Shown here: piece after piece, positions 51,901 to 52,696 of the stretch
How the letters are laid out: each line of letters begins with the position of its first letter
Numbering within the stretch: the stretch's first letter is position 1
Source: Pristiophorus japonicus
Taxonomy: Eukaryota
Reading direction: 5' to 3'
DNA length: 64,000 nucleotides
Assembly: GCF_044704955.1 (NCBI RefSeq)
Contig: NC_091985.1
Span: 226,672,001-226,736,000 of the forward strand
Position numbers and translations under genes: made by a program
Notes under the pieces: model-generated
The model's database searches: none
The model's input: the letters and a program-made list of their open reading frames with translations, nothing else
Told to the model about the DNA's origin: nothing

Positions 51901-52696
51901 ATGCCTGAGGAAAAGAAACCAGCTTCGCTTCTCGGCCTTTTGGCTAAGATCTGCATAACTAACCTGACCAGCCACCATGACTTCCGGGTGGTTTCTCCCT
52001 GGTCAGGAAGGTATATGCTTACATTTTTGTAAACAGGAGGTGGGTGGGATTGGTGACCCATCCACCTCCACGGAGGTGTGTGGGGGACCTGACCCATCCA
52101 CCTCCATGGCACGAACCTGGTATTGCAGTACTTCCAGGAACGGTGCAGTGGCTCTAGGCCTTTTGGCTAAGAGCATTGGCGCAGAGTGATCCTTGACTGG
52201 TGCAGGGTGACCTCTGGCGTTTGACAAAGAATTGTAACGATTGGATAACGATTGGACATGAATTAAAAAAAAAAAAAAGAAACCAGCTTCGAAAAAGGGT
52301 GCCAAGAAAGTAACCAAGAAAACACCACCGAAGGGCGGCAAGAAGCGCAGAAAGTCAAGGAAGGAGAGTTACTCCATCTACATTTATAAAGTGATGAAGC
52401 AGGTTCACCCCGACACCGGCATCTCCTCCAAGGCCATGGGCATCATGAACTCGTTTGTGAGCGATATATTCGAGCGCATCGCGGGTGAGGCTTCCCGCCT
52501 CGGCCCACTACAACAAGCGCTGCACCATCAGTTCCCGGGAGATTCAAACCGCCGTACGCCTGCTGCTACCCGGGGAGCTGGCCAAGCACGCCGTGTCGGA
52601 AGGGACAAAGGCGGTGACCAAGTACACCAGCTCCAAGTAAAGCTCCACGTTGTCCTGACAGAACAAACCCCAAACACAACGGCTCTTTTAAGAGCC
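51901..52696 (+). pseudogene. H2B: H2B pseudogene interrupted by the snRNA-mosaic insertion, plus a 1-nt frameshift
   Basis: ATG 51901; insertion 51925-52278; extra C at cgcctcggcccac (~52501); TAA ends 52640; stem-loop 52681-52696. Confidence 0.92.
51925..52278 (+). mobile_element. snRNA-derived retroposed element (U2/U1 mosaic, SINEU-like)
   Basis: tcgcttctcggccttttggctaagatc matches U2 nt 2-28; U2 SL IV acctggtattgcagtacttccaggaacggtgca at 52115-52147; A14 tail; TSD aaaagaaaccagcttcg at 51911-51927 and 52275-52291. Confidence 0.88.

Follow-up and report, generated by a model that had tools for sequence, protein, structure and literature searches.

A putative SINEU-type U2/U1 retroposon in a shark genome, its candidate source copies inside U2 genes and a Keno-like LINE as probable partner

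Retroposons assembled from spliceosomal RNA sequences are known as the SINEU-1, -2 and -3 families of crocodilians, outside of which none was found according to the original account (Kojima, 2015; PMC4494074). In SINEU-1C and SINEU-1H, a U2 head has been added to a U1-headed element, and SINEU-2 combines U1 with U2 (PMC4494074, as excerpted). The same excerpts tie SINEU to Tx1-Mar elements, which cluster with Keno, note tandem insertions and leave open how SINEU are transcribed; they also describe the U2 promoter as an external Pol II promoter (PMC4494074). Within the open-access literature, to the extent that its texts were accessible, we found no report of SINEU beyond crocodilians or in sharks, nor of the capture of a U2 promoter; a Repbase entry may exist.

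Here, we describe an element of this kind from the shark Pristiophorus japonicus. Sequence comparisons suggest, with a probability that we put at about 0.78, that it is a young, non-autonomous U2/U1 retroposon of the SINEU type, the RNA of which is likely made from U2 promoters and likely copied into cDNA by a Keno-like Tx1 LINE that targets U2. What appears to be new is that such a retroposon occurs alongside copies in U2 genes that are candidates for its source, and alongside an intact LINE as its probable partner.

A U2/U1 element inside a histone gene

The window, that is, the whole analysed stretch of 64 kb (contig NC_091985.1, positions 226,672,001 to 226,736,000), contains at about 51925-52274 a 340-bp retroposon that ends in poly-A, is flanked by a target duplication of 17 bp and lies within a broken H2B gene. 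The resulting histone H2B pseudogene (51901-52640, plus strand, as are all parts of the element given below) is split by the element after codon 9 and carries a frameshift downstream; its remainder aligns to an intact paralog at 48624 with 346 identities, 20 mismatches and 1 gap. The left target-site duplication (51911-51927) is identical to the right one (52275-52291), and its last three bases coincide with U2 nucleotides 2-4, a case of microhomology. From 5' to 3', the element comprises U2 1-28, U1 3-57, the remains of another U1 fragment, U2 from about 97 to 187, a second U2 fragment (7-29), a tail and poly-A, U2 29-96 being the part replaced by U1 sequence.

The element head (51925-51951) corresponds to U2 nucleotides 2-28, which form stem-loop I, and is identical to host U2 at 27/27 positions. 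A short linker delimited by the family alignment (51952-51957) leads to the decayed U1 nucleotides 3-57 (51958-52007), which include the 9-mer that pairs with 5' splice sites, with 8 of its 9 bases kept (51958-51966), and an altered stem-loop I loop (51979-51987) above a retained upper stem. The next five bases (52008-52012) are, by eye, what remains of a second, duplicated U1 fragment that spans approximately U1 35-48 in basal copies. They are followed by a Sm-site-like A-U5-G (52023-52029), recognized in the Rfam alignment and by copy parsing, the leading A of which occurs in 51 of the 93 copies parsed but not in the basal subfamily, and by a diverged U2 stem-loop III region (52030-52108) with an internal duplication of ~37 nt not found in basal copies. 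U2 stem-loop IV (52109-52148), which in U2 is the U2B''/U2A' site, is almost invariant between subfamilies. The second U2 5' fragment (nucleotides 7-29; 52153-52175), 21/23 identical to host U2, forms a hairpin resembling stem-loop I, and precedes a family-specific tail (52176-52264), common to a U1-less sister family and unmatched in the 3' UTR of the partner LINE, and the poly-A (52265-52274).

The surroundings are those of a histone cluster, with H4, H2B, two H2A, H3 and H1 genes (names assigned by eye) at 17560-17871, 48624-48998, 49960-50394, 53552-53986, 54336-54935 and 56931-57710, and six histone 3' stem-loops recognized by Rfam; several of the genes are seemingly broken. Broken gag/pol/integrase-like frames at 19771-23377 (plus strand) and 43619-47122 (minus strand) presumably belong to endogenous retrovirus-like and gypsy-like elements, judging by eye. 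Self-BLAST revealed an A-rich array of tandem repeats whose period is long, ~1,170 bp (29794-36246), and a shorter array with a period of ~84 bp that is present twice (9491-10301 and 43038-43696).

The preliminary description of the locus had placed a U1-like stretch where the branch-point region of U2 would be expected, and suggested alignment to the species' own U1 with shuffled controls, a search with the Rfam U1 model and a family comparison. The 69 bases concerned (51952-52020) directly adjoin U2 nucleotides 2-28 and lie inside an Rfam U2 match (51924-52153; 53.3 bits) in which nothing aligns to the part of the model that covers the branch-point region and stem-loops IIa/IIb. Pairwise alignment assigns 51958-52007 to nucleotides 3-57 of the host's own U1 gene, for which the commonest form served as reference (16 of 20 fetched copies identical, from 42 genome matches); the U2 reference was identical in 12/12 fetched copies from 48 genome matches. 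The score of the window copy against U1 was reached by 8 of 5,000 dinucleotide shuffles under lenient scoring and by 148 of 5,000 under strict, BLAST-like scoring, whereas the U2 control for the same segment was at chance level under both schemes (942/2,000 and 1,588/2,000). By itself, the window copy would thus count as modest evidence for U1 descent. The Rfam U1 model returned no match on the window segment even at E<=10, and the U1 claim is consequently based on pairwise alignments to host U1. In three older (basal) family copies, the match to host U1 nucleotides 3-57 was equalled in 0 of 3,000 shuffles under either scheme (z 10.7-20.5); these copies have a 16-nt exact run in common with host U1 and retain the host-type stem of U1 stem-loop I. 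Given the strength of these matches next to the weak one of the window copy, the proof is carried by the family rather than by the window copy, and on such alignments the U1 origin of the segment can be considered secure, as the preliminary description had proposed.

The minimum free energy fold of the segment (-30 kcal/mol; z -4.29; 0/200 shuffles) pairs 51963-51971 with 51999-52007 around 51972-51976/51987-51991. The hairpin drawn earlier, cctgaccag/ctggtcagg around ccacc/ggtgg, is therefore recovered as a predicted structure, but its lower 9-bp helix is absent from U1: it is made by the element, not derived from U1, and arose within the element, reaching a perfect 9 bp through changes on both strands. 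In the predicted fold, this helix occupies 4 of the 9 bases of the splice-site-pairing 9-mer, the last four being paired with a predicted probability of 1.0 in 4/4 folded copies. Both pre-mRNA-pairing motifs are altered or absent in the window copy, in agreement with the preliminary description, and U1 nucleotides 3-11 are exact in 0 of 96 copies.

Sites for snRNP proteins have fared unequally. In U1, the A29-A36 pair closes the loop, and the U1-70K protein contacts G28, U30, C31, A32, C33 and G34 (PMC4383343, as excerpted). Setting aside 8 matches that the parser misread, all 93 loops parsed for stem-loop I have 9 nt compared to 10 nt in the host, and the host loop occurs in 0/93; G28-A29 is kept in 88 and U30 in 1. 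In the window copy, the contact positions U30, C31 and A32 all differ from the host, and the combination of a G28-A29-U30-C31-A32 loop with the A29-A36 pair that would mark a functional U1 stem-loop I appears to be lacking. Variable columns, defined by a substitution (other changes being left aside) common to at least 4 of 96 near-full copies, are most frequent in the U1-derived part (20/56 columns versus 35/233 elsewhere; p 0.001), including 6/9 in the stem-loop I loop versus 49/280 elsewhere (columns 51978-51986, covering 8 of the 9 loop bases). By contrast, U2 stem-loop IV, the loop of which is the U2B'' site in U2 (PMC4114683, in the part available), has 1/38 variable columns versus 54/251 elsewhere (p 0.003), and the second hairpin 1/26 (p 0.04), all of these p values being rough because columns and copies are non-independent and the tests covered seven regions. 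Aligned to its counterpart in the main class of host U2, stem-loop IV shows 35 identities, 2 mismatches and 2 gaps, so that simple conversion by U2 does not account for how little it varies. The branch-point sequence and stem-loop IIa expected of a functional U2 variant are missing with the replacement of U2 29-96; however, U2 29-38 has been regained in 3 of 96 copies, and in the sister family the U2 5' region is preserved in full, with its branch-point motif. The altered loops and the presence of this motif in relatives indicate that the U1-70K scaffold is not kept and that loss of the motif is not fixed in the lineage. Hence, of the earlier proposal that the RNA retains protein-binding scaffolds of both snRNPs, the U2 half stands, with stem-loop IV at 1/38 variable columns, and the U1 half does not, with 0/93 host-like loops.

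A family with graded subfamilies

An 18-mer from the element tail has 5,293 exact matches in the 5.9-Gb genome (control, 0), and 41 of 61 genome matches were 100% identical to the window copy after rounding (17 contigs, window copy counted). Our sample consists of 104 copies from 62 loci and is not random, since it was drawn with two queries, of the youngest and the basal type, plus tandem neighbours; it resolves into 13 clusters with common junctions, and the window variant is its commonest identical type (13/104 copies). Target duplications were recognized at 19/62 loci; the parser used does not cope well with the older tail. By these sequence measures, the family is young and apparently still active.

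The U1-less sister family (loci L125-L149; for example, L134:1463-1726 and L065:6087-6595) consists of nearly full-length U2 with an 11-nt deletion, followed by the second U2 5' fragment and the same tail and poly-A. Its dispersed copies are 94-99% identical, further copies lie within the long U2 repeat unit, and against U1 it scored 8.5-12 in 6 of 17 copies tested; it is likely near the ancestral form. A tree of 20 rows, computed from the 3' part alone, splits off the sister family (100/100; placed by the midpoint root) and is otherwise ladder-like, with the most U1-like copies basal and the window type at a tip, although 6 of 16 inner branches are open and most have support below 95. Along the subfamily tree, U1 alignment scores drop from 36 through 33 and 30 to 16.5. 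On the simplest reading of these sequences, U2 29-96 would have been replaced by U1 sequence a single time, with decay thereafter.

The U2 match begins at +1 or +2 in 43 of 96 copies, where a leading A may derive from the flank, and one dispersed subfamily has exactly U2 1-38, ending at the insertion site described below. Tandem copies occur at 26/62 loci. The tandem arrays (L006, L007, L010, L017, L018, L023-L030, L071-L073 and L076-L102) are polar: the upstream copy is of the younger type in 30 of 42 adjacent pairs, with 5 pairs in reverse order and 7 ties. Among the tandem junctions, 21 sandwich a target duplication and 14 join poly-A straight to the next head. The first bases of U2 are similar to the +38 target. 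Four repeat families have been hit more than once at one position (L006/L018/L073/L085; L022/L072/L091; L008/L087; L020/L024). At L192, an independent insertion of a different variant, with a different 5' end, occupies the same site of another H2B gene, and at L193 a copy lies near the start of an H4 gene, both by eye; histone gene starts may be an insertion hotspot.

The element is non-coding, shorter than 500 bp and snRNA-headed, ends in poly-A, is flanked by target duplications and propagates as a unit with subfamilies, as is characteristic of SINEU; a partnership with the Tx1 clade, also typical of SINEU, is suggested by the U2 +39 site in common and by mixed tandems. Rfam and tRNA searches of the window element detected no tRNA, 5S or 7SL match that would provide an internal Pol III promoter, and the T4 and T5 runs inside it set it apart from classical Pol III SINEs.

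Copies inside U2 genes and the partner LINE

In the main U2 array, we identified 17 places where U2 upstream DNA runs directly into the element at U2 +1. In 16 of these, the poly-A (20-63 nt) is joined to U2 +39; the A tail of the 17th is too long for the parser. With 291 promoter junctions in the main class, at least 17, or about 6%, are occupied, a lower bound because 40 of 1,267 candidates were scored, and a count in which unplaced array contigs may be redundant haplotypes. The upstream DNA of the embedded copies resembles that of intact neighbours over about 250-300 bp (by eye). The embedded copies alternate with intact U2 genes and LINE insertions and are near-identical to each other; those of the main array may trace back to one or two insertions that multiplied along with it. 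In the second U2 class, 1 of 21 genes is interrupted at the same position under different upstream DNA, which, to judge from these flanks, is an independent event. Two dispersed copies are identical (340/340 and 338/338) to an array-embedded variant, including its private changes, and for a second embedded variant 7 of 11 fetched loci were identical over 322-341 nt; identity alone does not show the direction of copying. The window variant was not found under a U2 promoter among the 40 of 1,267 candidates scored. The two U2 gene classes are 95.8% identical and have unrelated upstream DNA (L051-L062 versus L065, L069 and L074); one type of U2 unit is a tandem repeat of ~770 bp with a microsatellite, the other measures ~18-21 kb. 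A motif ~60 bases upstream is, by eye, common to U1 and the second U2 class and weak in the first.

Inside a U2 gene, at L064:1129-6872 (minus strand), lies a 5,744-bp Tx1-type LINE with two open ORFs and a U2-like head. Pfam assigns a zinc knuckle and RNA-binding domains of the ZCCHC3 type to ORF1, and an APE-type endonuclease and a reverse transcriptase to ORF2. Its homologs are of the Tx1 type, including the Danio TX1 149-kDa protein at 34%, the most identical named ones being short matches in Heterodontus proteins (81% and 71%); these hits included no named Keno sequence. Among the best 25 LINE 3' ends, 9 lie at U2 +39, 4 at the same position of the LINE's own U2-like head, 1 before another copy, 4 abut a SINE outside U2 genes and 7 are in unrelated DNA. 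At L088 and L091, the LINE 3' end is immediately upstream of the SINE, and at L189 a truncated SINE lies within a LINE head at a +39-type site, under an orphan U2 promoter. The +39 site agrees with the published position of Keno through the target motifs quoted in the accessible part of PMC4640811, and on sequence grounds the LINE fits Keno as PMC4494074 and PMC4640811, in excerpt, describe it.

The U2-like head of the LINE departs from U2 at +39 and within the branch-point motif. The 5' UTR of the LINE contains a hairpin like U2 stem-loop I; the similarity of this hairpin to the second SINE hairpin was reached by 97/2,000 shuffles for the window type and 244/2,000 for the sister family. No 3' tail common to SINE and LINE was detected (1,510/2,000 and 1,126/2,000 shuffles). 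Off-target sites are weakly U2-like (2.46 versus 2.15 of 8 positions; p 0.035, n=59), and no flanks in common were found among 16 LINE and 59 SINE off-target ends. The idea that loss of U2 29-38 protects the element against self-insertion is weakened, because the LINE enters its own altered head (4/25) and SINE tandems are common (26/62).

A possible route of expression, alternatives and known systems

We propose that the LINE endonuclease nicks U2 at +38/39 and that the U2 head of the element cDNA would then anneal to U2 1-28, replacing U2 1-38. A copy inserted in this way would fall under the U2 promoter and could become a source gene for element RNA, its transcript extending through U2 39-191, with priming at the internal poly-A. 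The U1 piece was likely acquired in a single event, through template switching or recombination, by an ancestor with U2 parts alone, of the kind represented by the sister family, and subsequently decayed into the element-specific hairpin. Loss of the branch-point motif was likely a by-product of the U1 replacement, perhaps kept because the RNA was thereby harmless to splicing. A bolder extension, tentative and on balance doubtful, is that the element hitchhikes on snRNP biogenesis: about 6% of the main U2 promoters would produce a capped chimeric RNA, in which stem-loop IV and the Sm site might exploit snRNP export, assembly and re-import to travel to and from the LINE proteins, and selection might have disarmed both pairing motifs, one by deletion of the branch-point sequence, the other by locking the U1 5' end in the new helix. 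If hitchhiking were true, this would be a natural, abundant snRNP-like parasite RNA competing with U2 for promoters and proteins.

Transcription from U2 promoters has to be weighed against the reading that the U2-embedded copies are landing sites only, the sources using other upstream promoters, by read-through or from histone genes or transposons; flanking upstream promoters were suggested for crocodilian SINEU by Kojima (PMC4494074, in the part available). Such sources would suit the window variant, which was not seen under a U2 promoter among the candidates scored (40/1,267) and of which the window copy sits just downstream of the H2B promoter region, as well as the copies near histone gene starts at L192 and L193. 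We nevertheless regard this reading as unlikely: a common 5' extension was seen, by eye, at 0 of 62 dispersed loci, starts concentrate at U2 +1/+2, and the head of one dispersed subfamily ends precisely at the U2 insertion site. Much less credible is the spliceosome mimic or decoy of the preliminary description, an RNA kept for a splicing role in which it would sequester U1 and U2 snRNP proteins. In its favour, the youngest type has changes in each of the two pairing motifs, stem-loop IV is conserved, a Sm-like site is present and about 6% of main-array U2 promoters (17/291) lead into the element, so that there could be an snRNP-like RNA. Against it, the loop for U1-70K has been lost and changes fast, the U1 match decays, the branch-point motif is present in the sister family and in one subfamily, and the A of the Sm site is missing from the basal subfamily; the quick succession of subfamilies, the poly-A and the insertions scattered by the thousand fit a selfish element, and the decoy claim is not upheld.

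A host family of variant snRNA genes with processed pseudogenes, involving no transposable element, would account for near-identical copies in U2 arrays under U2 upstream DNA, but the embedded copies have a poly-A of variable length (20-63), interrupt U2 at the LINE site and alternate with intact U2 genes and LINE insertions, leaving this reading highly improbable. Finally, were the U1 likeness due to chance and the segment of some other origin, the strict score of the window copy (148/5,000) and the silence of the Rfam U1 model would be as expected; the 0/3,000 shuffles and the 16-nt exact run of the basal copies speak against it and, since the U2 parts and the tail are in common, those copies cannot be unrelated to the window copy, which reduces the chance reading to a nearly negligible one.

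The preferred reading, a SINEU-type retroposon launched from U2 genes, would offer a concrete route for the expression of such elements, namely, landing in U2 at the LINE site with the element's own head restoring U2 +1, and, if right, would answer the open question of how they are expressed. As candidate sources, the partner LINE, a U1-less sister family and graded subfamilies are present in one genome, this question is directly testable. It would further imply that snRNA arrays can host a parasite with a partly snRNP-like RNA and that Rfam U2 matches in such genomes largely represent this U2/U1 retroposon family.

Viral Sm-class U RNAs, such as HSURs, are snRNA-like RNAs with Sm sites. They resemble the window element in these respects, but the latter is a dispersed poly-A retroposon without viral context. 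R2 elements in 28S rDNA, as described in PMC4494074, resemble the window element in being promoterless and in depending on the promoter of a targeted, repeated RNA gene; however, R2 is autonomous, driven by Pol I and self-released by a ribozyme, whereas the U2 head of the window element would restore the +1 of a Pol II snRNA gene. Utopia is U2-specific, has the same U2 3' junction as Keno and shows relaxed targeting in some lineages, but carries a restriction-like endonuclease (PMC4640811, in the part available); the endonuclease of the LINE described here is of the APE type, and the LINE is therefore not Utopia. With Keno, the partner LINE has in common an APE-type endonuclease, a reverse transcriptase and a fixed 3' junction in U2 (PMC4494074 and PMC4640811, in excerpt). 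The window element differs from Keno in being non-coding and merely using the site, and the partner LINE in being found also outside U2 (7/25 best 3' ends).

The closest likeness is to SINEU as portrayed in the excerpts of PMC4494074: both are short non-coding retroposons with U1 and U2 parts, poly-A and target duplications, both show tandem insertions with a duplication between them, heads renewed repeatedly from snRNA sequences and internal oligo-T, and both have a Tx1-clade partner without a 3' tail in common. The origin of the shark family is likely independent of that of crocodilian SINEU, the two being compared by description rather than by sequence. Compared with the crocodilian elements so described, U1 here replaces U2 29-96 internally; the host is a shark, and copies are found inside U2 genes, placed under the promoter of U2, instead of in Mariner-N4; and the partner is a U2-targeting element that is itself present intact.
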